A stretch of 64,000 nt of DNA from a bacterium. GTDB lineage: Bacteria > Actinomycetota > Acidimicrobiia > Spongiisociales > ZC4RG35. Below, piece after piece: positions 94 through 13,461 of this stretch. The notes beneath the pieces were generated by a model. The model made no database searches. It was given only the letters and a program-made list of their open reading frames with translations, and was not told where the DNA came from. The stretch's first letter is position 1; each line of letters starts with the position of its first letter. Where the stretch lies: assembly GCA_028823995.1 (NCBI GenBank), contig JAPPFD010000031.1, forward strand, positions 123,877 through 187,876. Direction: 5' to 3'. Made by a program: the position numbers and the translations under genes.

Positions 94-1512
94 TCATCGC
101 TCCACCGGCAGGCTGAACCCGATTACCGCGCCGCCGTCGGGGTGATTACGAGCGAAGACGGTTCCCCCATGGGCGGCCACCAGATGCTCGACTATGGCCA
201 GCCCCAACCCTGAGCCGGGGGTGCCTCTCGCTTGGCGCGAGCGGTAGAAGCGACGAAAGATGTACGGAATGTCGCCTTCGGGTATGCCGGGCCCATCGTC
301 AATTACTACGACGGTCCCGCCCTCGACGCTGATCTCAACTCTGGCGGCAGACCATTTGACAGCGTTGTCCACCAGGTTGCCAAGGGCCCTCTCCAATTGT
401 GAGCGCCTTCCTCTCGGCACCGCGCCCTCTCCGGATACCACCACCGCTTTGTGATCAACCCCGCGGAAGCGTTGTGCCACGTCGGCCGCGAGTTCCCCCA
501 GATCTATCTCGGTGAGTTCCTCATCATGGTGGTGCACGTCGGTGGCGAGGTCCACCAGTTCGGTTGCAAGGGCTCCCAACTGGTCCGATTGGGTCAGGGC
601 GGCCTCAGCTATTGCGAGCCGTTGGGAACCGGAGAGACTCCGGTCTTGGCGGAGGAGAGTCTCGAGGTTGGTCTTCAGGGCCGTGATGGGTGTGCGGAAT
701 TCATGTCCGGCATCGGATACCAACCGCTGCTGTTCCTGCCGGGACGCGGACAGTGAGGACAGCATCGAAGCGAATGCGGCGGCCAAGCGCCCTATCTCCC
801 CGGGGGCGGAGCGGTCGAGTTCGACTCCTGCTTCCAATCTCTCGGTGGCGGCAATCTGTTCGGCGGCATCGGTTAGATCGGTGATCGGCCGCACTGCGCG
901 GGAAGCCAGCACCCAGCCGGTCAGGCCTACCAAAAGGATGCCGACAATCCCGATCGGGAGCATCCGCCGGGTGAACCCTGCCACATTGGCATTGACCCGG
1001 GACATGTCCCTGGCAATCTGGAACCCGGCCGCGGACGGGATCTCCGGTGGCGGGTCCCTGAGTCGGCCTGTGAGCATCCGGTAGGGCACATCGTCAACCC
1101 GCACATCCCTTATCGCCGATCCGCCACGGTCGGCAACCGCCAGGTCCGCGGGCTCGACCGGGAAAGTTACGTCTTCGGGACCGGTCCGCAGAACTATTGC
1201 CCCGTCCCGGTCGAAGACCTGCAGGAAAGTATCAGGAGCCACGAGCATTGACTCCCAATCACCATGTGGTCCCCAGTCGTCATGTGCTCCCGTGTCATCC
1301 CCCGCGCTACCGGACACATCGGCGAATTCTCCAGCCTCTTCGTGCAGGTGAGCGGCCTCTTCGTGCAGATGGGCGGCCTCCTCCCGCAGATCGGCGTTAA
1401 CCGCTCCCCGCAGTTGCTGCGCCGCTGAAAGGGTGGCTGCCCAAGTGGTGAGACCGACAGCCACCGCAGCCACCAGGCCGAGGCTCAGAGCCCATCTCCA
1501 GCGGATGCTCAT
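94..1512 (-). CDS. Two-component sensor histidine kinase (HAMP + HisKA + HATPase_c), MprB/BaeS-like
   Basis: N-terminal TM helix, HisKA phospho-acceptor box '[10 protein letters not shown]', ATPase G-boxes '[10 protein letters not shown]' and 'GSGLGLAIV'. The stop overlaps the response-regulator start (ATGA). Confidence 0.85.
1334..1396. repeat. 21-bp tandem repeat x3 inside the sensor kinase gene, encoding [15 protein letters not shown]...
   Basis: Units gcctcttcgtgcagRtgRgcg at 1334-1354, 1355-1375 and 1376-1396 (third copy degenerate). The repeat is in frame and lies in the N-terminal extracytoplasmic segment. Confidence 0.6.
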
Positions 1513-2192
1513 GAGTCCCTCGCCACATACCCCACTCCCCGTACAGTGTGTATCAGCCGCGACTCCCCTCCGGATTCCAACTTCCGCCGCAGGTATCCGA
1601 CATAGACCTCCAGGGGATTGGAGGTGGTTGGGAAGTCATAACCCCAGATCCGGTCCATGATCACATCCCGCGGCAGCACGATCCTGGCGTTGAAGACCAG
1701 CAACTCCAGAAGATCGAACTCCGTCTTGGTCAGGATGATCTCACGCTGTCCCCTGAATACCCGGCGGGCGGCTGGGTCGACGGACAGGTCGGCGATCCGC
1801 ATGGGTTGGCTCTGTCCGGAGACTCCTCCCCTGCGCAGCAAGGCCCGGATGCGGGCCAGCAGTTCCTCCAGTGCGAAGGGCTTTACCAGATAGTCGTCTG
1901 CGCCGGCGTCGAGTCCCGCCACCCTGTGGGTGACCTCGTGGCGGGCGGTGAGCATCAGGATCGGAGTGGTGTCCCCGTCCTTCCGCATCCTCCGGGCCAC
2001 GCCCAACCCGTCCACGTAAGGCATGATGACGTCCAGGATGACGGCGTCGGGAGAGTCAGAAGCGATCATCTCCAGCGCCGCCAGACCGTCCGTGGCGGTG
2101 GTTACGTCGAATCCCTCCAGATGGAGGGCGCGCTGCAACGACTCCCGGACCCGCTGGTCGTCCTCCACCACCAGCAGCCGGCCGCCACTCAT
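1509..2192 (-). CDS. OmpR-family response regulator (receiver + winged-helix), MprA-like
   Basis: '[14 protein letters not shown]...DVIMPYVDG...LMLTAR' receiver with the phospho-Asp, and a C-terminal 'trans_reg_C' winged helix '[13 protein letters not shown]...TVRGVGY'. Confidence 0.9.
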
Positions 2193-2213: not shown

Positions 2214-3374
2214 CTATTTCCGTTCTTCCAGGATCCAGGTGGTCGCGGAAGGACTGTCCTGGAGGGTCACGCCCAGCCTCTCCAGACCGGCGCGGATCCG
2301 GTCTGCTTCCTCCCAGCGTTTCTGGGCGCGGAGGCGGGACCGCGCATCAACCAGCAACTTCACGTAGCCCCCCACCCATTCGGCCGGCTCCACCAGGCCG
2401 GACACCGCCAAATCCGACATCTCCAAAAGAGCGGATCTTAAGGTCTCTCGAGCCTGAGAGGAACCCTCCGCGGCCATTGACTCCAGCCGGAGCAGTGTCT
2501 CGGCAATCATCTCGGCCGATCGGGCAGCCTTGGCCTCGCTGAGATCGGGCAGAGTCTGGAGGGGCTCGGGGGGAGGCGCCGGGGGGCTGGTTTCCAAGAG
2601 CTTGAACATCGTGCCCAGGGCTATCGCTTCTCCGTCGGCCACGAACAGGTCCTCCGCTCCGCTCAGGGTGACCCCTCCCGCCCCCAGGACACTCATCTCT
2701 CCGGTCCCGAGGTCAATGGTGGCGGCCGTGTGCTCATCCACCCCGATCACTCCCATTCCCTCGGGCAGCATGGCTCGAAGCCGCTGGAAGCGGCGCCGCC
2801 CCATGTAGCAGCGGCTGGTGTCGAATCCCTGGCCCTCGGTGTTGTTCCAATGGGGTATGACCACTGCCTCCAGACCCAGGTGAGCGGTGAGGTTCAGCCC
2901 TTCCAACCACTCCAGCCCGGCGCCGGCTTTGAATATTTCGTAGACCGGAAGGGTCTTGGCTCCGGCGGTGAGGGCCGCAGCCGAGGCCAGGGTGACGGTT
3001 GCGCCGTCCGAGAGGAGTTTCCGAAGCGCCGCCGCCAGTCCCGTGTCCTGCCAGGTCGCCAGGGCGTAGCCGGGCGAACCGGGCCCGGCGAAGACGTAAC
3101 GGGCGCGACGGATGGCGGCCAGCATCCTTTCACGGGCACCCTCTCCTTCCGAGGCGGAGCGATAGGAGGCAACCGCGGCGTCTATGGACAGGCTGGTCCG
3201 GAAGAACCTGGTGAGTCGTTCGGAGAGGAGAGGGGCGTTCTCCTGGAATCCGTAAGGAGTGTCCAAGACCACCGCCTCCCGGGCGCCGGCCCGCTCGACT
3301 CCCAGCCGGTGGGCGGCCACCAGGCGATTGGAGACCTCCCCCGACCCCATCAGGATGAGCCTTCCGGCACTCAT
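2214..3374 (-). CDS. Fusion protein: peptidase E/cyanophycinase (S51)-like N-domain plus a domain resembling the C-terminal anticodon-binding domain of cysteinyl-tRNA synthetase
   Basis: The N-terminal half shows the S51 signatures LILMGSGE, 'FAGPGSPG' (GGGNT-like), 'TLASAAAL' (Ser nucleophile region) and 'VIPHWNN' (His). The last ~60 aa, 'RAQKRWEEADRIRAGLERLGVTLQDSPSATTWILEERK', match the CysRS C-terminal motif (A-D-x-I-R-D-x-L-x-x-x-G-I-x-L-x-D-x-P-x-G-T-x-W). I place the start at the internal ATG 3374, which forms an ATGA overlap with the upstream hydrolase stop. The track's ORF extends to 3407. Confidence 0.6.
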   Translation of the reverse strand: MSAGRLILMGSGEVSNRLVAAHRLGVERAGAREAVVLDTPYGFQENAPLLSERLTRFFRTSLSIDAAVASYRSASEGEGARERMLAAIRRARYVFAGPGSPGYALATWQDTGLAAALRKLLSDGATVTLASAAALTAGAKTLPVYEIFKAGAGLEWLEGLNLTAHLGLEAVVIPHWNNTEGQGFDTSRCYMGRRRFQRLRAMLPEGMGVIGVDEHTAATIDLGTGEMSVLGAGGVTLSGAEDLFVADGEAIALGTMFKLLETSPPAPPPEPLQTLPDLSEAKAARSAEMIAETLLRLESMAAEGSSQARETLRSALLEMSDLAVSGLVEPAEWVGGYVKLLVDARSRLRAQKRWEEADRIRAGLERLGVTLQDSPSATTWILEERK

Positions 3375-4279
3375 GGGGACACCTCCCGCGCCAGTTCCTC
3401 GAGCCATCCGGCGGTCAGGCGAGGGTATTGAGCATGCAGATCATGGTGCGCATCCAGCCATATCACCCGGCCCCTGGGAAGAAGGTTGGCGAAACGGGAC
3501 ACGCTCTTTACCTTGGAGGCTCTTCCGGCCGCCGTCTGCGCGGTGGCGATCACCAGGACCGGTTGTTGAATGGAGGGAGCGATCTCGCCCGGCTGGTGCT
3601 TCCACATCTCCGCCAGCAGCCGGAAGTGGTAGTCCCTTTTCAGGTGAGGCCGCGCCGTCCCGTCCGGTGCCACCTGGAAGTTGGCCAACTGGCCCAGGAT
3701 GCCGCTCTCCGGCCAGTCGGAATAGCGCTTCCGGAGCCTCATCTCTAATTCGGTGTAGAGGACCTTGTCGAAGGACGGAGGGGCTAGTTCCCGGGCCGCC
3801 GTCTCCCAATCGGGGAAGGCTCGGCTCAACGTGATGAACCCCCCGTCGATACAGGCCACGGCGGCGATTCGGCTCGGGTGGCGGCTGGCCAACTCCAGAA
3901 CCACATTGCCTCCCAGGGACTGTCCCGCCGCCACGACCGCCGTTTCGGGAGGAAAGAACCTGTCGGTCACCGATAACAGATCGTCTGCCAGGGTGGCGAA
4001 GTCGAAGGGGCCGTCCACCTTGTCGGACTGTCCGTGAGAGCGCTGGTCCACCGCCACGGACCGATAGCCTCTCGATGCCAAGTGGTCGGCGACGCCGTCC
4101 CAGAGGCGGGCATTGGAGGCCAGCCCATGCACGAGCAGGAAGGCGACGGGCCGGAACCCGGCCCGGCTCACCGCGCTGATCCCCACCCCCTGGTCGGTGA
4201 TGATTCGAAGCCGTTGCTGTTCTCTCACTGCCCTCTTCCGAATTGCTCCGTGGCGATTGCCCCGACAAGCATGGACCAC
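3371..4279 (-). CDS. alpha/beta-fold hydrolase
   Basis: 'LLVHGLASNARLW' (HG oxyanion region), nucleophile elbow 'GQSLGG', a C-terminal His region, and the typical ~280-aa length. The true start is probably an internal GTG near 4171-4186. Confidence 0.75.
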   Translation of the reverse strand: MVHACRGNRHGAIRKRAVREQQRLRIITDQGVGISAVSRAGFRPVAFLLVHGLASNARLWDGVADHLASRGYRSVAVDQRSHGQSDKVDGPFDFATLADDLLSVTDRFFPPETAVVAAGQSLGGNVVLELASRHPSRIAAVACIDGGFITLSRAFPDWETAARELAPPSFDKVLYTELEMRLRKRYSDWPESGILGQLANFQVAPDGTARPHLKRDYHFRLLAEMWKHQPGEIAPSIQQPVLVIATAQTAAGRASKVKSVSRFANLLPRGRVIWLDAHHDLHAQYPRLTAGWLEELAREVSP

Positions 4280-4337: not shown

Positions 4338-5609
4338 GTGACAGCCACCATCGTGTTGGGCGCACAGTGGGGCGACGAGGGCAAGGGCCGGGTCACCGAT
4401 TTCTTCGCGGAGTCCGCCGACTTCGTCGTCCGCTACCAGGGAGGGAACAACGCCGGGCACACCATCACCATTGGCGAACGAGTCTTTGCCCTCTCTGTCG
4501 TCCCGTCGGGGGTGATGTACGAGGAGTGCGTACCGGTGATCGCCTCGGGTTGTGTCCTGGATCCGGCGGTGCTCCTCGAAGAGATCGAGATGCTCACCCG
4601 GGAGGGATTCAGCCCCGAACGCCTTCGGATCTCCTCCAACGCCCACCTGATCATGCCCTATCACCGGGTGCTGGACGGGGTGATGGAACTGTATCTGGGC
4701 CGCAACCGGATCGGGACCACCAAGCGGGGGATCGGTCCTGCCTACACCGACAAGTACCAGCGGGTGGGCATCAGGGTCCAAGACCTGTTCGACCCCCGCA
4801 TCTTCCGGGAGAAGGTGGAGGCGGCCCTGGAAGACAAGAACAAGATAATCACCAGGGTCTACAACCGCCTCCCCATGGATCCCGAGGAGGTGACTTCTTC
4901 GTACCTGGAGATGGCGGATCGTCTCCTTCCCTATGTGACCGACACCTCTCTTCTGTTATGGAACGCAATAACCGATGGCCGCTCGGTGCTGTTTGAAGGC
5001 GCTCAGGGAACGCTCCTCGACATCGATCACGGCACGTATCCCTTCGTCACCTCCTCCAATCCCACCGCGGGCGGCGCGTTGATCGGGGCGGGGTTGGGGC
5101 CCACCGCCATCGACTCGGTGGTCGGAGTTGCCAAGGCCTACATCTCCCGGGTGGGCAGCGGTCCCTTCCCCACGGAGTTGTTCGACGAGGTCGGCGATTG
5201 GATGGTGGATAAGGGCCGGGAGTTCGGCACCGTGACGGGTCGACGGCGGCGCTGCGGGTGGCTCGACCTGGTGGCTCTTCGCTACGCGGCGAGAGTCAAC
5301 GGTTTGACGCACCTGTTCATCACCAAGTTGGACATCCTCTCGGGGCTCGACACCCTACGGGTGGCGGTTGGCTACGACGCCGCCGGAGACAGCTACCGGG
5401 AATTCCCCCGTCAGCAGCGGGTGCTGTACAAGTGCACTCCGGTCTACGAAGACCTGGAGGGATGGTCCGAGGACATCACGGAGGCAAGGAGGTTCGAGGA
5501 TCTCCCGGCGGCGGCCCGTCGGTACATACGGTTCATCGAGGAGGCGGTGGGAGTACCGGTGGGCTGGGTCTCGGTCGGTCCCGAGCGGAGCCAACTGGTG
5601 GTGAGATAG
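4338..5609 (+). CDS. purA: Adenylosuccinate synthetase
   Basis: P-loop 'GAQWGDEGKG', 'GGNNAGHT', 'GTTKRGIGPAY', length 423 aa, GTG start. Confidence 0.95.
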   Translation: MTATIVLGAQWGDEGKGRVTDFFAESADFVVRYQGGNNAGHTITIGERVFALSVVPSGVMYEECVPVIASGCVLDPAVLLEEIEMLTREGFSPERLRISSNAHLIMPYHRVLDGVMELYLGRNRIGTTKRGIGPAYTDKYQRVGIRVQDLFDPRIFREKVEAALEDKNKIITRVYNRLPMDPEEVTSSYLEMADRLLPYVTDTSLLLWNAITDGRSVLFEGAQGTLLDIDHGTYPFVTSSNPTAGGALIGAGLGPTAIDSVVGVAKAYISRVGSGPFPTELFDEVGDWMVDKGREFGTVTGRRRRCGWLDLVALRYAARVNGLTHLFITKLDILSGLDTLRVAVGYDAAGDSYREFPRQQRVLYKCTPVYEDLEGWSEDITEARRFEDLPAAARRYIRFIEEAVGVPVGWVSVGPERSQLVVR

Positions 5610-5624: not shown

Positions 5625-6812
5625 TCAAAGCGACTTGGCGAGGGGGGCGGCAAGATCGCCGTTGGGCGACACCGACACTTCCCGGGCGCCCAACCACCCG
5701 ACCATGTCCACGAGTTCTGCGGCAAGCTCCCGGCAGACCCTCTCGGTGGCGATGTCGGGCTCGGCGTAGCTGCCCAGCACCAGCAGGCGTTTGGCGCGCC
5801 GGTCCAGCTTGAGGTCCACGCGGGCGACCATCTTATCCCCGAGCAGGAAGGGCAGCACGTAGTAACCGTGGATCCGTTTGGGGCGGGGAATGTAGATCTC
5901 TATCCGGTAACGGAAGTCGAAGAGCCGCTCCAGGCGCGGTCGGTGCCAGACCAGGGGATCGAAGGGCGATAGGAGCGCCCGTCCGCCAACATGGCGGGGA
6001 AGGGCGGCATCGGGATCCAGGTAGGCCGGCTCCGACCAGCCTTCTACCTCGACTTCCCGGATTTCGCCCGACTCCACCAGGTGCGACAGTGCCTTGCGGG
6101 CCGGCCAGATACCCATGCGGTAGTAGTCGGCGAGATCGGCCGCGGTCCCCACGCCGCAGCGCGCCACCGCCAGGCGGAGCAGGCGTCGTAGGGCTTCCGG
6201 GCCCTCGACGGGCGGTTCGTCCAGCGCCCAGGCGGGATGAACCCGCTCGGGGACGTCGAACCATCGGATGAAGTTCGGCCGGTCGGCCACGGTGACCGTC
6301 CCTTTCCAGAACAGCCACTCCAAGGCGCGTTTTCCCATGTTGTGCCCCCACCAGGATCCGCCGGACTTCCCCGGCTCGCTCAGGTCAGAAACCCGAAGGG
6401 GTCCCTCTTCAGCCACCTCCTGGCACACCTGTTGTACGTATTCGGGGTTGTCGTAGTTGACGGACTCGATCCATCCCCGAGGCGTCTCACGCATCCGGTG
6501 GACGAGGAGGGGTCGGTGGCCGATCGGCATCAGGGATCGCTCGTGCCCCCAGTACTCGAAGAGTTCCTGAGACGTCCACAGCCACTGGTCCAGGAGATCG
6601 CGGGGATAGGCGCCCAGCCGGGAGAAGAAGGGGAGATAGTGCGCTCTGGCGAGCACGTTGACAGAGTCGAGTTGTACGACGCCCATCGTGTCGAGGGTCT
6701 CTCGGAAGCCGTCGGCGTCCACCGGCTCCGTGGGGCGGGCCCGCCCAAGCCCGGTGGCGATTATCGCCATCCGGCGGGCCTGGTCCAGGGTCAGTCGCTT
6801 CACATCCGCCAT
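5625..6812 (-). CDS. Winged-helix DNA glycosylase of the YcaQ/AlkZ family (DUF1006)
   Basis: About 395 aa, 'DQARRMAIIATGL' N-terminus and the overall YcaQ-like composition. Start taken at internal ATG 6812 (MADVKRL). Confidence 0.65.
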   Translation of the reverse strand: MADVKRLTLDQARRMAIIATGLGRARPTEPVDADGFRETLDTMGVVQLDSVNVLARAHYLPFFSRLGAYPRDLLDQWLWTSQELFEYWGHERSLMPIGHRPLLVHRMRETPRGWIESVNYDNPEYVQQVCQEVAEEGPLRVSDLSEPGKSGGSWWGHNMGKRALEWLFWKGTVTVADRPNFIRWFDVPERVHPAWALDEPPVEGPEALRRLLRLAVARCGVGTAADLADYYRMGIWPARKALSHLVESGEIREVEVEGWSEPAYLDPDAALPRHVGGRALLSPFDPLVWHRPRLERLFDFRYRIEIYIPRPKRIHGYYVLPFLLGDKMVARVDLKLDRRAKRLLVLGSYAEPDIATERVCRELAAELVDMVGWLGAREVSVSPNGDLAAPLAKSL

Positions 6813-6952
6813 GGGAGGGATCCCGGGGGTGCGGCGGCGTTGGTGGCAGGGCACATCGGATAGGAGCCTATGTTCGTCTCAGCCGCCCTCAGCCTATTTG
6901 TGGCTGGGCGGCGGGACATCGGCAGGTAATCTCACATAAGCGGTGGGACCAA

Positions 6953-8281
6953 ATGAGTCCCCCGGCCGATGAGATGATAGATCGCTACACGCTTCCGGAG
7001 ATGGCCGAGTTGTGGTCGGCTGAGCGGCGCTTAGGCACCTGGAAGAAAGTGGAGGAATTGGCGCTGGAGGCTTGGGCCGAGGCCGGAGTGGCGCCCGCTG
7101 AAGCCGCGACGGCAATCCGGAGGGCGCCGGTTCCCACCCCGAAGCAGGTTGCGGAGCGGGAGGCGATCATCAATCATGACCTCGCAGCCTTTGTCGACGT
7201 CCTGGCGGCGGGCATGGAAGAGGGAGGGGAGTGGGTCCACTACGGGCTTACCTCCTCTGATGTGGTCGACACGGCTGCCGGCGTGATCATGGACGAGGCG
7301 GCCCGCCTGTTGATCGGTGAGGTCGAGCGTCTTTTCACGGTGCTCAGGGAGGCGGCGCTGGAGCATCAGGAGACGGTGATGCTGGGTCGCACCCACGGCA
7401 TGTGGGCTGAGCCCACCTCGTGGGGTCTCAAACTGGCGAACTGGGCCTTCCAGGTGGCCAGGGACCATGAACGGCTCGGCGCCGCCCGCCAAGCGGTGGC
7501 GGTCGGCAAGGTGAGCGGCGCGGTAGGCACCTATGCGCAATGCCCCCCGGCGGTGGAGGAATACGTATGCGCGAGGCTCGGGATCGGATCGGAACCGGCT
7601 TCCACCCAGGTGACGGCCCGGGATCGACACGCCCAGTTGCTGGGCGCCATCGCCTTAGCCGGGGCTTCCCTGGAGCGTTTCGCCACCGAGATCCGTCTGC
7701 TGCAGCGCAACGAGGTGGGAGAAGCGGCGGAGGGATTCCGGCCCGGCCAGAAGGGATCTTCGGCCATGCCCCACAAGAGGAACCCGATCACCTCGGAGAG
7801 AATGGCCGGCATGGCCCGGTTGCTCCGGGGCTACTCGGCGGCGGCGCTCGAGAATGTGGCGCTGTGGCATGAGCGGGACATCAGCCATTCCTCGGCCGAG
7901 CGGGTGATCATCCCGGACGCCTGTACCGTCCTCCACTACATGCTGGTGACCTTCACCGGGTTGATGGAGCGCCTGGAGGTGAACGCGGAGCGGATGAGGG
8001 CCAACCTCGATTCAACCGGAGGCCTGGTGGTCAGCGGGGCGCTTCTCTCGGAGTTGATCCAGCAATCCGGCCTCAGCCGTGACGACGCCTACCGGATAGT
8101 GCAGCGAAACGCTGCGGCGGTGCTTGACGGCGGCAGGGTCCTGTGGGAGGAACTGGCCTCCGATCCCGACGTGACTGTCCCGGCCGACCGGCTGCAAGAG
8201 GTTTCCGACCCGATGAGGTTCCTGGCGGAGACCCCGGTGGTCTTCGATCGACTCCGGGCTCTCAACCTGCCGCCCCACTGA
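6953..8281 (+). CDS. purB: Adenylosuccinate lyase
   Basis: 'MIDRYTLPEMAELWS' PurB N-terminus, fumarate-lyase signature 'GSSAMPHKRNP'. The start could instead be ATG 6974. Confidence 0.95.
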   Translation: MSPPADEMIDRYTLPEMAELWSAERRLGTWKKVEELALEAWAEAGVAPAEAATAIRRAPVPTPKQVAEREAIINHDLAAFVDVLAAGMEEGGEWVHYGLTSSDVVDTAAGVIMDEAARLLIGEVERLFTVLREAALEHQETVMLGRTHGMWAEPTSWGLKLANWAFQVARDHERLGAARQAVAVGKVSGAVGTYAQCPPAVEEYVCARLGIGSEPASTQVTARDRHAQLLGAIALAGASLERFATEIRLLQRNEVGEAAEGFRPGQKGSSAMPHKRNPITSERMAGMARLLRGYSAAALENVALWHERDISHSSAERVIIPDACTVLHYMLVTFTGLMERLEVNAERMRANLDSTGGLVVSGALLSELIQQSGLSRDDAYRIVQRNAAAVLDGGRVLWEELASDPDVTVPADRLQEVSDPMRFLAETPVVFDRLRALNLPPH

Positions 8282-8386: not shown

Positions 8387-9325
8387 CTACCCGCGGGCGA
8401 TCTCCAGCCAACTGTCGACCCGGTCGCGGTTGGAGGCGATCCAGGCCTCGGCGTCAGCTTGGACATCGGCGTCGGAGTACTCATCGGCCGCAGCCATCTT
8501 GGCGTTCTGAGCGGCGATGTCGCTCAACGGAATCGCCACCACCTCGAGGAGACGGCGGATATCCGGGTTGTCATCCAAGAAGTCGGTGTTGGCCACTGCC
8601 CGGATGTCGTTGACGCCGTGTTCGTACACCCAGACCGCATTGTCCCCGGCAACCAGGGAGTTGGCGGTCCAGTTGGGGGTGTAGGCGTAGAACAGCACCG
8701 ACTCACCGGCATTCACCCGGTCGATGACGCCTCGGACCAGGTCGTCGTAGTTACCGACGATCTGCTCCACGCTGGCGCCCCAACTCTCATCGGCGATCAG
8801 GTCGTTGATCCAGGTGTTGCATCCCCAACCGGCGTTGCATCCGATCAGGTCGGCCTTGCCGTTTCCGTTGGAGTCGAAGACGCCGGCATTGGCGGCTACG
8901 TCAGCCATGGAAGAGATTCCCAACCGGTCGGCCGTGGCCTTGTCGACCATCCAACCCTCGACGCCTCCCTTGGCTACTTCATAGCCGACGGGTTCGATGG
9001 GGAGATCCACCGCTTGTCCGGTGACGTTCTCCCCCTCCAGGAAGATGTCGTGGTTCGGGAACCATCCGTTGGCCCACAGGTCGTACTGCCCGGCGGCTAG
9101 GGCCGGATAGAAGGAGAAGGGCTGCAACTCTGCCAAGGCGGGATCGGTGACCTCGTGTCCGAGTTCTTCGATCAACTGAGCGTAGATGGCGGCCTGCATG
9201 TGACCGGAGGACCAATCGGCCCGGGCCATCGTCACCGGCCGGTCCTGGCCGTCGGTGGCGCAGGCGGAGAGCACCAGCACGAACGCCGCGAGAGCGGCGA
9301 TCAATACATTCGATCTCTTGGTCAT
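8387..9325 (-). CDS. Glycine betaine/choline-type substrate-binding lipoprotein (OpuAC/ProX family)
   Basis: Lipoprotein signal with lipobox 'LSAC', aromatic-cage region 'WANGWFPNHDIF', 'YAYTPNW'. Translationally coupled (ATGA) to the upstream BCCT gene. Confidence 0.85.
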   Translation of the reverse strand: MTKRSNVLIAALAAFVLVLSACATDGQDRPVTMARADWSSGHMQAAIYAQLIEELGHEVTDPALAELQPFSFYPALAAGQYDLWANGWFPNHDIFLEGENVTGQAVDLPIEPVGYEVAKGGVEGWMVDKATADRLGISSMADVAANAGVFDSNGNGKADLIGCNAGWGCNTWINDLIADESWGASVEQIVGNYDDLVRGVIDRVNAGESVLFYAYTPNWTANSLVAGDNAVWVYEHGVNDIRAVANTDFLDDNPDIRRLLEVVAIPLSDIAAQNAKMAAADEYSDADVQADAEAWIASNRDRVDSWLEIARG

Positions 9326-11091
9326 GACGGGTCGCCTCCTCTTCCCAGCCTCTCAAGCAAGCCGCTGTGCTGGGCCTTGAAGATGGCTTCGTCGTAGTGA
9401 CTCTCCAAGAGGTCGAGTTCTTCGTCGAAGGCCTTCTTGAGGCTCCACAGCATGATGAGAAGCACGAACAGGAATGGCAGGCCGGTGGCCACGGCGGCCG
9501 TTTGGAGCGCCGATAGGCCACCTCCCAACAGCAACACGCACGCAACCAGGCCCTCCATGCACGCCCAGAAAACCCGCTGAGGCTTGGGCGAGTCGAGCTT
9601 CCCTCCGGAGGTGAGGTGATCCACGACCAGAGAACCCGAGTCCGACGACGTAACGAAGAACGACACCAACAGCAGGATGCCGACTATCGAGACGAAGAAG
9701 GTCCATGGGAAGGCTTCCAACATCACGAACAGGGCGGTGGCCACGTTTTCGTTCACCGCGGTGGCGACGTCCAGTTCACCGGTCATCTGCAGATTCATGG
9801 CCGCTCCGCCGAACACCGCGAACCACAGGAAGCACAGGAGGCAGGGGAGCACGATCACACCGATGATCATTTCCCGCACCGAGCGCCCCTTGGAGATTCG
9901 GGCGATAAACATTCCGACGAAGGGAGACCAGGAAATCCACCATCCCCAGTAGAAGATGGTCCACCACTGCTGCCATTGGGTCTCGATCAATGCTGCGTTC
10001 CAGAACGAGAACTCCGGCAATATCTGGATGTAGACGCCGATGCTCTCAACGTACAGCGACAGGACCAACAGAGTCGGTCCCACCAACATCACGAACAGCA
10101 GGAACGCCGCGGCCAGATAAACGTTGAGCTGGCTCAGTCTCTTGACCCCTGCGTCCAGACCCGCAACCACCGAGATGGTCGCCAGCCCGGTGATGAAGGC
10201 GATCAGGATGATCTGGAAGCCGGTGCCCGATGGCAGGCCGAAGAGCTTGTTCAACCCTGCGGCAGCCTGACCGGCGCCGAATCCCAGCGAAGTGGCAAGA
10301 CCGAAGAGGGTCGCCACCACCGTCAGGATGTCGATGGCGTTGCCCCATCCACCGTAGATCCTCGGACCGAGAATCGGATAGAAGACCGAGCGGAAGGTCA
10401 GCGGCAGGCCCCGGTTGTAGGCGAAGAATCCCAGGGCCAGGGCTACCAGGCCATAAAGCGCCCATCCATGAATCCCCCAGTGGAGATAGGACGTTGCCAG
10501 CGCTCCTCTTGCCGCGCCCGCTGAAAGGGGCTCGACGTCGAAGAGGGGAGGCGGCGCTGTCAGGTGGTAGATCGGCTCTGCTACGCCCCAGAACATCAAC
10601 CCGATGCCGAGACCGGCGGAGATCAACATTGCGTACCAGGCGCCGGTGGAAAACTCCGGAAGGGCTCCTGGACCGCCTAGTCGAATCTTGCCGTACCTGC
10701 CTAACGCAAAGTAGAGAGCGGCGCCGATGAAGATGTTGAACGCAATGATGTACAGCCAACCAACCTTCTCGTTGATAAAGGTGAGAATGGTGCCGAAAAC
10801 GTCCGCGGCCGATTCCGGGAACAACAGAGTCCAGGCGATGAACAGCAGCAGGAAACCTGCCGCGTAGAACGTCACCTGCGGGTGGATGTCGAATCCCCAC
10901 TTGACAATGTTCTTGTCACCAGGCTCCCGGTCGGCTACCTCGGGATAGAAATCAATATCTGGATCGACTTGGAGGCCCTCGAACTGGGGTCGGTTTTGAA
11001 TGGCCGCCGCACGGCGGCGTTCCTCTTCCTCTTCCCAGTCTTCGTAGGCCTCGGCGATCTGAGTGAGATCGAGATCTTCTTTGTCAGACAT
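9322..11091 (-). CDS. BCCT-family (betaine/carnitine/choline) transporter
   Basis: 12 TM helices, BCCT signature 'WTIFYWGWWISWSPFVGMFIARISKGRS', 589 aa. Confidence 0.9.
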   Translation of the reverse strand: MSDKEDLDLTQIAEAYEDWEEEEERRRAAAIQNRPQFEGLQVDPDIDFYPEVADREPGDKNIVKWGFDIHPQVTFYAAGFLLLFIAWTLLFPESAADVFGTILTFINEKVGWLYIIAFNIFIGAALYFALGRYGKIRLGGPGALPEFSTGAWYAMLISAGLGIGLMFWGVAEPIYHLTAPPPLFDVEPLSAGAARGALATSYLHWGIHGWALYGLVALALGFFAYNRGLPLTFRSVFYPILGPRIYGGWGNAIDILTVVATLFGLATSLGFGAGQAAAGLNKLFGLPSGTGFQIILIAFITGLATISVVAGLDAGVKRLSQLNVYLAAAFLLFVMLVGPTLLVLSLYVESIGVYIQILPEFSFWNAALIETQWQQWWTIFYWGWWISWSPFVGMFIARISKGRSVREMIIGVIVLPCLLCFLWFAVFGGAAMNLQMTGELDVATAVNENVATALFVMLEAFPWTFFVSIVGILLLVSFFVTSSDSGSLVVDHLTSGGKLDSPKPQRVFWACMEGLVACVLLLGGGLSALQTAAVATGLPFLFVLLIMLWSLKKAFDEELDLLESHYDEAIFKAQHSGLLERLGRGGDPS

Positions 11092-11376
11092 ACGAACTCC
11101 TTTCTACTCGTGGGTCGGCCATTTTCGCCTCCTTCTGTCGTCTTAGCTTCTTCTTTACCACCCGCGACGAATTATCTCCGGTAGACCCGTGCAGCGTCGG
11201 CAGGGGGCAAGCATTTTCCCAGCAACCCTACTTATGAACCGGCGGGCGCGTCGCAAAAAGCGGTGACTCTTTTTTTCTTGTTTCACCTGGTGGAATGACT
11301 TCCAATTTCAGGACGGAAAAGGGGCAATTGCACATCGCTTTGCTACCCTTCGGCCCAGCCCACCCGGACACCTTTC

Positions 11377-13461
11377 ATGCGCAGAATCTCCATTGTTGTC
11401 TTGGGAATACTGTCGATAATGCTTGTTTCTCCTCTGGCCGCGGGTATGGTCCAGGTCGAGTCGGGGGACGAAGGCGGTGAAAGACAACCGGTGCGGATGG
11501 CCCGGGCCACCTGGGACACCGGATGGTTCCAAGCCGAGGTTTATCGCCTTTTGATGCAGCGGCTCGGATATCAGGTTGAGGGACCTGTGACCATGGACAA
11601 CGACGAGTTCTACGAAGCCGTGGCGGTTGGCGAGGTGGACCTGTGGGCCAACGGATGGTTCCCGACACAGGACGTCTTTCTTCAGGAGGACCATGTGGAA
11701 TTGGTGGGAACCCAGGTGGACGATGGCGCGCTGCAGGGATACTTCGTGGACAAGGCCACCGCGGAAGCTCACGGGATCACCAACCTCGGGGACTTGGCCA
11801 GCCCCGAACTTGCCGCGCTGTTCGATGAGGACGGGGACGGGTTGGCCGACCTCACCGGGTGCGAGCCCTCGTGGGGTTGCGCGGCGATCATAGATCACCA
11901 CCTGGAGGCCTATGGGTTGAGGGACACGGTCGAACAGGTTCAGGGCGCCTACTCACCCTCGATAAGGGCGACCTTCGATCGGTATCGGTCCGGGCGACCG
12001 GTCCTCTACTACACGTGGACGCCCAACTGGACCGTTGGCGAGCTACAGCCTGGTCGGGACGTGGTCTGGCTCGAGACGCCCTTCCCCTCACTGCCTTTGG
12101 AGCAGGCTGCCTACCTGGACCGGACCACGATCGCCGGGATCCGGGGATGCGCCAACGATCCGTGCCAGGTCGGCTGGCCTCCCAATGACATACGAGTGGT
12201 GGCCAACAGCCGTTTCCTGGAAGCCAACCCATCCATCCGCAGGCTGCTGGAGCAGGTGGTGATCCCGCTGGGGGACATCTCTGCCCAGAACGCCTTGATG
12301 GTGGCCGACGAGGGGGATCCCGAGGACATCCGCCGCCATGCCGAAGAGTGGGTGGACGCCAATCAGGCCCTCGTGGAGGGCTGGATAGAGGCTGCGGACC
12401 CGGAGGCCGTGGGACTGGAAGAAACCGGCGGCGCCATCTCGGCGGCCGGGGGCAGGCTGGCGGTTGCCGTACGCATTCTCCCGCCATTCGTGGTTTATGA
12501 CGACCGCTCCTACAGCGGCTTCGAGGTGGAGTTGGCGCACCTTCTGGCCGCCCGCCTGGGGATGGAAGTCGACATCCACGCGGTGGACACGGTGGCGAAG
12601 CAGATCGATGACATCGACCGTGGCGTCGCCCGGTTGGCCCTGGGGGGAGTGGCAATCACCGAATCCAGGGAGCGGTTGGTCGATTTCTCCTTGCCGGTGC
12701 TCAACACCGGGCTGACCATCATGGCGCCCAGCGAAGCGGACCGGCACATCGGTGATCGCATCCTGATGTTCCTGAGAGCGATTTTCTCCTCGGACCTCCC
12801 CTGGTTGCTGGTGGTGTTCGGGGTGGCGGTTCTGATCTCCGCCCATGTGATCTGGTGGTTGGAACGGCATCACAACGCCGATTTCGCCGTGCCCTACCGC
12901 CAGGGAATCTGGGACTCGTTCTACTGGTCTGTGGTGACCATGAGCACCGTCGGTTATGGCGACAAGGTGGCCAGGGGCGACAAGGGGAGAGTGTTCGCTC
13001 TGATCTGGATAGCCCTGGGAACGCTTGTGTTCGCCAGTTTCACCGCTTCCATCGCCTCATCCCTGGCGGTCAGCGAATTGCGTGGCGAGATCGCCGGCCC
13101 CTCCGATCTACCCGGTCACCGGGTTGCCACGGTCTCCCAGACGTCGGGGGCAGCCTACCTGTCCTCCATAGGGGTGGGGCCGGTGCTGGTGCAGGACGTC
13201 GGGGATGCGTATTCGCTGCTTCAGGCAGGCGAGGTCGATGCGATTGTCTTCGACGCTCCCGTGCTTCATTTCCACGCCTCCCGGGAGGGAGCCGGCGAGT
13301 TGGTGACGGTCGGTCCCGACTTCGAACAGGTCCAGTACGGGTTCGTGCTGAGCCAGGATGACGCCGATTTCCGGGAGCAGGTCAATCTGGCCCTGCTGGA
13401 TCTCATCGAGAGCGGGGTCTATCGCCAACTCCACGACCGGTGGTTCGGTCCGTTGGGTTGA
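11377..13461 (+). CDS. Exported fusion: ProX-type betaine-binding domain plus a GluR0-like ligand-gated K+ channel (PBP3 S1 lobe, M1-pore-M2, S2 lobe)
   Basis: Signal peptide. Residues ~40-350 are paralogous to the ProX at 8387-9325 ('WANGWFPTQDVF', 'YYTWTPNW', 'IRVVANSRFLEANPSIRRLL'). Residues ~360-450 form a PBP3 S1 lobe ('ITESRERLVDFSLPV'), followed by a TM, a pore helix 'WDSFYWSVVTMSTVGYGD', a second TM, and an S2 lobe ('DAIVFDAPVLHF'). There is no third TM, which is the GluR0 topology. Confidence 0.8.
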   Translation: MRRISIVVLGILSIMLVSPLAAGMVQVESGDEGGERQPVRMARATWDTGWFQAEVYRLLMQRLGYQVEGPVTMDNDEFYEAVAVGEVDLWANGWFPTQDVFLQEDHVELVGTQVDDGALQGYFVDKATAEAHGITNLGDLASPELAALFDEDGDGLADLTGCEPSWGCAAIIDHHLEAYGLRDTVEQVQGAYSPSIRATFDRYRSGRPVLYYTWTPNWTVGELQPGRDVVWLETPFPSLPLEQAAYLDRTTIAGIRGCANDPCQVGWPPNDIRVVANSRFLEANPSIRRLLEQVVIPLGDISAQNALMVADEGDPEDIRRHAEEWVDANQALVEGWIEAADPEAVGLEETGGAISAAGGRLAVAVRILPPFVVYDDRSYSGFEVELAHLLAARLGMEVDIHAVDTVAKQIDDIDRGVARLALGGVAITESRERLVDFSLPVLNTGLTIMAPSEADRHIGDRILMFLRAIFSSDLPWLLVVFGVAVLISAHVIWWLERHHNADFAVPYRQGIWDSFYWSVVTMSTVGYGDKVARGDKGRVFALIWIALGTLVFASFTASIASSLAVSELRGEIAGPSDLPGHRVATVSQTSGAAYLSSIGVGPVLVQDVGDAYSLLQAGEVDAIVFDAPVLHFHASREGAGELVTVGPDFEQVQYGFVLSQDDADFREQVNLALLDLIESGVYRQLHDRWFGPLG

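Follow-up and report, generated by a model that had tools for sequence, protein, structure and literature searches.

We have analysed a 64-kb window (64,000 nucleotides; positions 123,877 to 187,876 of contig JAPPFD010000031.1, assembly GCA_028823995.1) from a bacterium of the class Acidimicrobiia. Our subject is a gene on its minus strand, at 2214..3374, whose product combines an N-terminal domain related to the peptidases of family S51 with a C-terminal module of the kind by which cysteinyl-tRNA synthetase (CysRS) binds the anticodon of tRNA-Cys. A fusion of this kind had been proposed in a first-pass annotation of the DNA, and it is borne out by profile searches, by the fold match and by the conservation of individual residues. 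Conservation refers throughout to an alignment of 136 representatives of the 50%-identity clusters obtained in an exhaustive search. The gene and its parts, with the evidence on which each assignment rests, are as follows.

2214..3374, minus strand: fusion gene, S51-like hydrolase plus CysRS-type anticodon-binding domain, 386 amino acids (aa) (list of open reading frames, homologue lengths, sequence)
2589..3374, minus strand: N-terminal catalytic domain, aa 1-262, predicted peptidase S51 / class I glutamine-amidotransferase-like fold (AlphaFold2 model, Foldseek, conservation)
2982..2984, minus strand: codon of Ser131, candidate nucleophile, ASAA motif (136/136 representatives; aligned to the CSAG serine of 6nqc)
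2850..2852, minus strand: codon of His175, candidate general base, PHW motif (136/136 representatives)
2733..2735, minus strand: codon of Glu214, candidate third member of the triad, GVDEHT motif (132/135 representatives; aligned to the GIDEVTA glutamate of 6nqc)
2373..2588, minus strand: variable spacer, aa 263-334, in which a Pro-rich linker of low confidence precedes helices (identity, length range, dip in model confidence)
2226..2372, minus strand: CysRS-type anticodon-binding module, aa 335-383, consisting of a long and a short helix and a beta-hairpin, corresponding approximately to E. coli CysRS 413-459 (profiles and structure match)
2292..2330, minus strand: codons of Arg349, Trp354, Asp358 and Arg361, equivalent to E. 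coli CysRS Arg427, Trp432, Asp436 and Arg439 (HMMER alignment to 1li5/1u0b)

The open reading frame (ORF) listed for this part of the window, taken from the first ATG, is 2214..3407 (minus strand, 397 aa) and ends with a TAG stop at 2214-2216. We prefer the start at 3374, which was also the choice of the first-pass annotation, on three grounds. The resulting length of 386 aa agrees with that of the closest homologues, which have 384-396 aa and align from residue 1; a GGGAGG lies ~10 nt 5' of this start; and there is a 4-nt overlap of its ATG with the TGA of the upstream alpha/beta hydrolase gene (CC-ATGA-GT, 3371-3374, within the sequence CCATGAGT). The same overlap confirms the translational coupling to the hydrolase gene that had been suggested. 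The G+C content of the region is even (~64-67%), and there is thus no sign of foreign DNA.

The C-terminal module

By profile comparison and by the predicted structure, the last 45-50 residues are truly homologous to the domain by which CysRS binds the anticodon. For the protein itself the Pfam model CysS_C (PF23493) scores 22.7 bits over aa 352-391 of the 397-aa form (E = 1.1e-4), at the edge of its gathering score of 23; many homologues are above this threshold (24-34 bits), and others carry a precomputed PF23493 match. The TIGR00435 (cysS) model aligns its positions 380-464, of 466, with aa 294-392 of the 397-aa form (E = 1.4e-5), and a phmmer search of the Protein Data Bank (PDB) returns CysRS chains only (8qhp, 1.1e-5; 3tqo, 6.7e-5; E. 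coli 1li5/1u0b, 9e-3). With a profile of 32 family members, four solved CysRS are reached at E = 8.9e-12, 1.5e-9, 7.6e-9 and 3.7e-8, and in some members of the family the identity to E. coli CysRS, over its last 43 residues, is as high as 58%.

The structural comparison points in the same direction. The last 104 aa, modelled alone with AlphaFold, form four helices and then a beta-hairpin, with a mean predicted local distance difference test score (pLDDT) of 92. A search of the PDB with this model matched CysRS alone, including the CysRS-tRNA-Cys complex 1u0b_B with probability 1.00, and the model superposes on Borrelia CysRS 3sp1_B over 47 columns with a root mean square deviation (rmsd) of 1.5 Å. 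The resemblance to CysRS suspected at first reading is therefore significant both by family profile (E down to 8.9e-12) and by structure match. The suspicion had extended to the last ~100 aa as the helical C-terminal domain of CysRS, and in this form it was too broad: it stands for the helix and hairpin of the last 45-50 residues, but not for the variable helices that precede them (14.9 Å rmsd, see below). Other parts of a synthetase appear to be missing. In the Pfam scan neither tRNA-synt_1e nor DALR_2 matched the fusion protein at E <= 1, while the E. coli CysS used as a control gave 2e-152 and 3.6e-23 for these two models, respectively; and there is no second CysRS-like domain, nor a CysRS gene, within the 64-kb window.

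The module retains the residues by which CysRS recognizes its anticodon. Positions 427, 432, 436 and 439 of the E. coli enzyme are anticodon contacts in 1U0B, with R427 hydrogen-bonded to O6 of G34 (PMC4536326, PMC13449415). Mutation D436S increases the charging of a tRNA-Cys with an amber anticodon five-fold and decreases wild-type charging 16-fold, and an enzyme with all four positions replaced (R427T/W432H/D436R/R439S) still functions, with a shifted preference (PMC4536326, PMC13449415). Since the mutants stay active with an altered anticodon preference, these four positions set specificity and are dispensable for folding. In the family, R349 is conserved in 131/132 sequences, an aromatic residue (W/F/Y) at position 354 in 131/132, D358 in 130/131 and R361 in 131/131. 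The other residues that the HMMER alignment equates with E. coli CysRS, R345 (R423), D373 (D451) and W380 (W458), are conserved likewise among the representatives, and when the four solved CysRS are aligned to the family profile the pattern at the anticodon-contact positions is identical. Because it is precisely the specificity positions that are kept in sequences only ~40% identical overall, we infer from these alignments that the module still reads GCA.

The N-terminal domain and the spacer

The predicted model places the N-terminal domain in the peptidase S51 fold as a divergent member; the similarity is weak by sequence and clear by fold. The Pfam model Peptidase_S51 (PF03575) scores 13.8 bits (E = 0.046) and hence below its gathering threshold of 23.9; other members of the fusion family score 13-19.7 bits, and a few homologues (P0289) have a precomputed PF03575 match. 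TIGR02069, the cyanophycinase equivalog, gives 28.8 bits (E = 7.6e-7; 36.8 bits for homologue P0151), below its cut-off of 126.6, and the family profile reaches 6nqc alone among solved S51 enzymes (E = 3e-4). The fold is recognized more readily. The full-length AlphaFold2 model has a pLDDT of 86.3 and a predicted template modelling score (pTM) of 0.76, and its top 20 Foldseek matches are S51 enzymes throughout (E 1.9e-12 to 8e-7). Ranked first is 6nqc, a peptidase of acI-B1 actinobacteria (E = 1.9e-12, target TM 0.80); PepE (6a4r and 1fy2), pseudo-CphB (7uqv) and cyanophycinase (3en0 and 7uqw) come next. Alignment lengths are ~230-300 columns, identities 15-21%, and TM values on the target 0.66-0.80.

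The S51 motifs that had been named at the outset are found as RLILMGSGE, FAGPGSPGY, LASAAALTAG, IPHWNN and GVDEHTA. In the family the conserved motifs of this domain are MGSGE (aa 9-13), GFQEN (42-46), GPGSP (97-101), ASAA (130-133), PVYEIxK (143-149), PHWNN (174-178), DTSRC (185-189) and GVDEHT (211-216). Candidates for the catalytic Ser and His that a genuine S51 enzyme should possess are both present in all of the 136 sequences, together with the Glu in 132 of 135. The 6nqc motifs SAG and IDE are the counterparts of Ser and Glu, respectively, in the alignment; His175 we take to be the counterpart of the S51 catalytic His from its position and invariance, rather than from a structural alignment at the level of residues. 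The triad of PepE is Ser120-His157-Glu192 (PMC9239234). As the Ser/His/Glu set is invariant within a confidently predicted S51 fold, the fusion protein is probably an active hydrolase and not a pseudoenzyme. A further set of polar residues is invariant (E13, H22, Q44, N46, Y145, K149, D185, R195, D213 and H215) and C189 is kept in 128/136 representatives; that so many of these residues are specific to the family points to a specific substrate, different from those of PepE and cyanophycinase.

Between the two domains the conservation drops. The mean pairwise identity is 46% in the S51 core, 24% in the spacer and 40-42% in the anticodon-binding domain; among the representatives, 35 to 180 aa (median 105) separate the end of the S51 domain from the beginning of the anticodon-binding domain, and in the full-length model pLDDT falls at aa 261-280. 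When the three regions were searched for with local hidden Markov models, the anticodon-binding domain was found in 135/147 representatives, and the 12 without it end in Arg-rich or truncated tails typical of frameshifts. Judged from these sequences, the family's anticodon-binding domain is obligate.

The family and its genomic neighbourhood

The fusion family is large. A word-indexed search returned >6,000 clusters at 90% identity, many of them with a precomputed PF23493 match, and the exhaustive search returned 1,324 clusters at 50% identity when cut at E <= 1e-3, and 367 when cut at E <= 1e-30. When one genome per GTDB species is considered, the fusion is carried by at least 587 species genomes in Actinomycetota and Chloroflexota/Dormibacterota, so that a survey of its taxonomic distribution, suggested with the first-pass annotation, finds it widespread. 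The carrier lineages include Acidimicrobiia, Actinomycetes (Mycobacteriales, Micromonosporaceae, Pseudonocardiaceae, Nanopelagicales and Kineosporiaceae), Chloroflexota and Dormibacterota, and Angustibacter peucedani is among the cultured carriers.

The names attached to the proteins in databases are "hypothetical protein", "cyanophycinase-like exopeptidase" and [quoted passage not shown]; for homologues P0151, P0275 and P0360 the NCBI name is "CysS/YqeB C-terminal domain-containing protein". We considered E. coli YqeB (b2875) as the source of this last label and rejected it, since neither Pfam nor NCBIfam finds CysS_C in it. Full-text literature searches found no published description of an S51 fusion with a CysRS domain or of trans-editing of tRNA-Cys. 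The family is thus visible in databases, yet unnamed and unstudied: it is a distinct branch of S51 with an obligatory CysRS-type reader and a hydrolase partner.

The neighbourhood of the gene was compared in 80 related loci, among which those lacking the hydrolase partner are often short contigs. The neighbours of interest in the window, and the recurrent arrangements in the related loci, are the following.

3371..4279, minus strand: partner alpha/beta-fold hydrolase, 302-aa ORF, nucleophile elbow GQSLG (GxSxG) (Pfam Abhydrolase_1, E = 4.9e-20)
94..2192, minus strand: downstream two-component system, with the response regulator at 1509-2192 and the histidine kinase at 94-1512 (Pfam domains; local context only)
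Related loci L020, L024, L025, L028, L047, L048, L053, L054, L058, L059, L063, L077, L078 and L079: clpS-DUF2017 gene pair (for example, L028 5296-6004)
Related loci L024, L025, L028, L032, L048, L053, L058, L059, L077, L078 and L079: tRNA-Glu gene on the same strand (for example, L028 7349-7589)

The fusion gene and the alpha/beta hydrolase gene are a two-gene module conserved across phyla. The latter lies directly upstream on the same strand in 43/80 loci, frequently with the 4-nt overlap of start and stop, and the same overlapping arrangement is seen in four more loci with called genes (L081, L085, L086 and L087); it is the sole widely conserved neighbour among the loci compared. Its relatives are generic esterases, perhydrolases and lactonases, and the nearest solved structures generic esterases or perhydrolases, so that we assign it no specific function.

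The remaining neighbours in the window are of local significance. The two-component system had been noted earlier as lying next to the fusion gene, and it does: the response regulator gene is separated from it by a 21-nt gap with no terminator-like site. This adjacency is not conserved, however, since by tblastn the response regulator of the window is found in 7/80 loci and its histidine kinase in 4/80, at varying distances within the flanks compared, and the system was rejected as a functional partner. The genes for purA, purB and AlkZ were rejected as well, being confined to the two closest relatives. No cyanophycin synthetase was present among the Pfam-labelled neighbours within +/-6-8 kb, and there was no PADLOC match to a defence system.

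In 14/80 loci (from Acidimicrobiales, Ilumatobacteraceae and some Actinomycetes) the fusion gene is preceded on its own strand by clpS and a DUF2017 gene. The pair is its direct neighbour in six of these, an alpha/beta hydrolase gene intervening in several others, and in L028 the DUF2017 stop overlaps the start of the fusion gene. The window itself does not have this arrangement. DUF2017 is the domain of AosR (Rv1332), which in oxidatively stressed M. tuberculosis activates the cysteine-synthesis genes mec-cysO-cysM (PMC8280819). The adjacency may be a hint of a link to cysteine or redox homeostasis; inherited synteny is an equally possible explanation. Genes for cysteine synthesis did not turn up near the copies linked to clpS-DUF2017, whose neighbours include malic enzyme, purM, purF, a methyltransferase, a transporter of the major facilitator superfamily and DegV.

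Just downstream, ~12 loci, largely those with clpS-DUF2017, have a gene for tRNA-Glu(UUC), in most cases with tRNA-Asp(GUC) and tRNA-Phe(GAA) after it. Its distance from the stop of the fusion gene is ~10-110 bp in ten loci and ~800 bp in L078, where a methyltransferase gene on the opposite strand lies in between. In the 60 loci scanned for tRNA genes, only Glu, Asp and Phe were found, in addition to one Arg, one unassigned and one transfer-messenger RNA (tmRNA).

Some observations on other genes may be recorded here. In L086 (1526-2542 and 928-1479) and L087 (5070-6086 and 4474-5025), both from Kineosporiaceae-type genomes, there is a gene for a 338-aa class I aminoacyl-tRNA synthetase (aaRS; Pfam tRNA-synt_1b, of the size of TrpRS) and one for a LigT-like 2'-5' RNA ligase, both divergent from the hydrolase-fusion pair. 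In the window, an AlkZ-like DNA glycosylase gene (5625-6854, minus strand; PF06224, E = 3.7e-61) is located between purA (4338-5609) and purB (6953-8281), and the histidine kinase gene contains a 21-bp tandem repeat (2.8 copies, 1334-1396) that produces a repeated LHEEAAH in the N-terminal (sensor) region. Within 8387-13461, a strongly positive AT skew coincides with a lower G+C at 9000-11000, over a minus-strand gene for a multi-pass membrane transporter (9322-11091) that resembles, by eye only, the BCCT betaine/choline family; it is flanked by two genes for glycine-betaine-binding-like lipoproteins, the second of which (11377-13461) is fused to solute-binding and ion-channel-like domains. 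The skew at 9000-11000 looks like ordinary codon bias of a membrane protein.

Interpretation, alternatives and significance

The reading that we favour, and that we hold tentatively, is that the fusion protein may be a hydrolase or acyl-transferase directed to tRNA-Cys, with the tRNA as carrier of the substrate; it draws on residue conservation and on the predicted fold. The C-terminal module would dock the protein on the GCA anticodon, and docking would bring the 3' acceptor end of the tRNA to the S51 active site, possibly across a dimer; in some S51 enzymes the active sites are reportedly at dimer interfaces. Ser131 would attack the ester that joins an aminoacyl or N-acyl-aminoacyl group to A76, and the resulting acyl-enzyme would be resolved either by water, with deacylation (trans-editing) of a wrongly or damagingly acylated tRNA-Cys as the outcome, or by an acceptor amine, in which case the cysteinyl group would be transferred. 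The coupled alpha/beta hydrolase would probably be a stoichiometric partner acting on the same substrate or on the product released. Action of an S51 enzyme on an acyl-tRNA is chemically reasonable because MccG, itself an S51 enzyme, accepts a nucleotide leaving group, cleaving aspartamidyl-adenylate and -cytidylate (PMC9239234). The architecture is also reasonable, as the free-standing editing domain of threonyl-tRNA synthetase (ThrRS) in archaea is similarly built, being fused to the anticodon-binding domain of ThrRS (PMC8762117).

Several observations weigh against it. Over 107 columns the 104-aa model differs from 1u0b by 14.9 Å rmsd, and the helices before the module do not superpose on the helical bundle of CysRS. 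With a spacer of 35-180 residues, the fixed distance of ~70 Å between anticodon and acceptor end (the figure for CysRS) is not obviously maintained. The protein is acidic throughout, with a median net charge of -8 in the S51 domain, -5 in the spacer and -2 in the anticodon-binding domain, unlike what is expected of an extended tRNA-binding surface. No tRNA-Cys gene occurs near the fusion gene, here or among the 60 scanned loci, and the 64-kb window is without any tRNA. The known substrates of S51 enzymes have amide bonds after an N-terminal Asp or beta-Asp, and esters are not among them; furthermore, we know of no need for editing by CysRS.

A more specific version, in which the protein would be a quality-control deacylase for tRNA-Cys built on a peptidase fold and removing a damaged or wrong acyl group, we consider quite doubtful. 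A plausible substrate in that case would be oxidized cysteine (cysteine sulfinate, which mimics aspartate), or another acidic residue, esterified on tRNA-Cys, because S51 enzymes favour an N-terminal Asp. The alpha/beta hydrolase would then handle a second step, and the recurrent position next to clpS-aosR would be meaningful.

The same conservation of anticodon residues would be expected if tRNA-Cys were not the substrate but a regulatory ligand. The S51 domain might then cleave a small peptide or conjugate containing Asp or Cys, tRNA binding would switch or localize this activity, and the breakdown of peptides or thiol conjugates would be coupled to the supply of cysteine. The acceptor end need not reach the active site, the variable spacer and the acidic catalytic domain are tolerated, S51 enzymes are typically hydrolases of small peptides, and the position downstream of clpS-DUF2017 in 14/80 loci would fit, given the role of AosR (PMC8280819). 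This arrangement is seen in a part of the family only, however, and may be inherited synteny; no genes of cysteine metabolism are present in the neighbourhoods examined, and an aaRS anticodon-binding domain serving as an allosteric sensor on a peptidase is without known precedent. On balance we regard the regulatory explanation as unlikely.

We also give a low probability to the view that the protein is an ordinary S51 exopeptidase (an Asp-X dipeptidase, or cyanophycinase-like) whose tail has been re-used for oligomerization or for binding a partner, another protein or a different nucleic acid. It has in its favour the names in databases, the weak TIGR02069 match (E = 7.6e-7), the peptidases that are its top structural neighbours, and the overall acidity; the tight coupling to a partner could also require a docking domain. 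The near-invariant residues of the tail, however, are the anticodon readers of CysRS, which tolerate mutation in that enzyme with fold and catalysis intact, and in a re-used scaffold these should drift. Moreover, the cut-offs of the cyanophycinase and S51 models are not reached, and the extra invariant polar residues suggest a different, specific substrate.

A detoxification role like that of MccG, an S51 enzyme that hydrolyses aspartamidyl-nucleotides to confer resistance to microcin C and for which many stand-alone genes exist (PMC9239234), would have the protein cleave an aminoacyl-nucleotide, such as a CysRS inhibitor that mimics cysteinyl-adenylate, with the tail as a decoy or targeting element. 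It is very improbable, since the MccG clade has a Ser-His-Asp triad (Asp196 in MccG, PMC9239234) where 132/135 sequences here have Glu, no mcc-like genes are nearby, PADLOC finds no match, and in CysRS the adenylate site is not contacted by the anticodon-binding domain, which would therefore be of no help in binding such a compound.

These results can be placed beside known systems. With the S51 enzymes (PepE, CphB, 6NQC and 7UQV) the family shares the fold, the order of motifs, the Ser in an SA(G/A) turn and the Glu in a G-x-D-E-x-T strand, and with PepE it has the Ser-His-Glu set in common. It differs from them in its own invariants (GSGE, GFQEN, GPGSPxY, PVYEIxK and DTxxC) and in a C-terminal extension of ~120 aa with the CysRS domain, which is missing from the solved S51 matches (194-266 aa). 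With CysRS it shares the last 45-50 residues, including the equivalents of R423, R427, W432, D436, R439, D451 and W458. Unlike CysRS it has no Rossmann catalytic domain, no HIGH/KMSKS and no DALR_2, and the preceding helices are arranged differently; with the catalytic domain and HIGH/KMSKS missing, it cannot aminoacylate.

The proposed logic, a hydrolytic domain without synthetase activity that a module of the cognate synthetase directs to a single tRNA species, would be shared with trans-editing proteins such as archaeal ThrRS-ED, YbaK, ProXp-ala and AlaX (PMC8762117). In the fusion family, however, the hydrolytic domain has the S51 fold, there is an alpha/beta hydrolase partner, and activity on tRNA is only proposed; the editing domains of aaRSs (INS/YbaK, AlaX, ThrRS-ED and DTD) had no Pfam or NCBIfam match in the fusion protein. 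MccG (S51 clade V) provides an example of the S51 fold acting on an amino-acyl group bound to a nucleotide, with the nucleotide fitting the leaving-group side. It differs from the fusion family in its Ser-His-Asp set and in having no tRNA-binding module; it cleaves an amide to a phosphoramidate, and it belongs to a context of antibiotic immunity, in some cases within an mcc cluster.

CysRS is usually held to be accurate enough without editing, and we know of no trans-acting hydrolase or transferase specific for tRNA-Cys. Should the tail prove not to bind tRNA, the family would still be a large branch within S51, distinctive in itself and accompanied by a partner enzyme that is conserved. The joint conservation, under strong selection, of a predicted hydrolase site and of the putative GCA-reading residues in hundreds of actinobacterial and Chloroflexota species implies an unrecognized transaction of tRNA-Cys, for which proofreading, removal of oxidized or damaged cysteine, cysteinyl transfer and sensing of tRNA-Cys charging are candidates. 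If true, any such transaction would represent a new type of enzyme in aminoacyl-tRNA metabolism, and would mean that the anticodon domain of an aminoacyl-tRNA synthetase can be grafted onto a peptidase fold.

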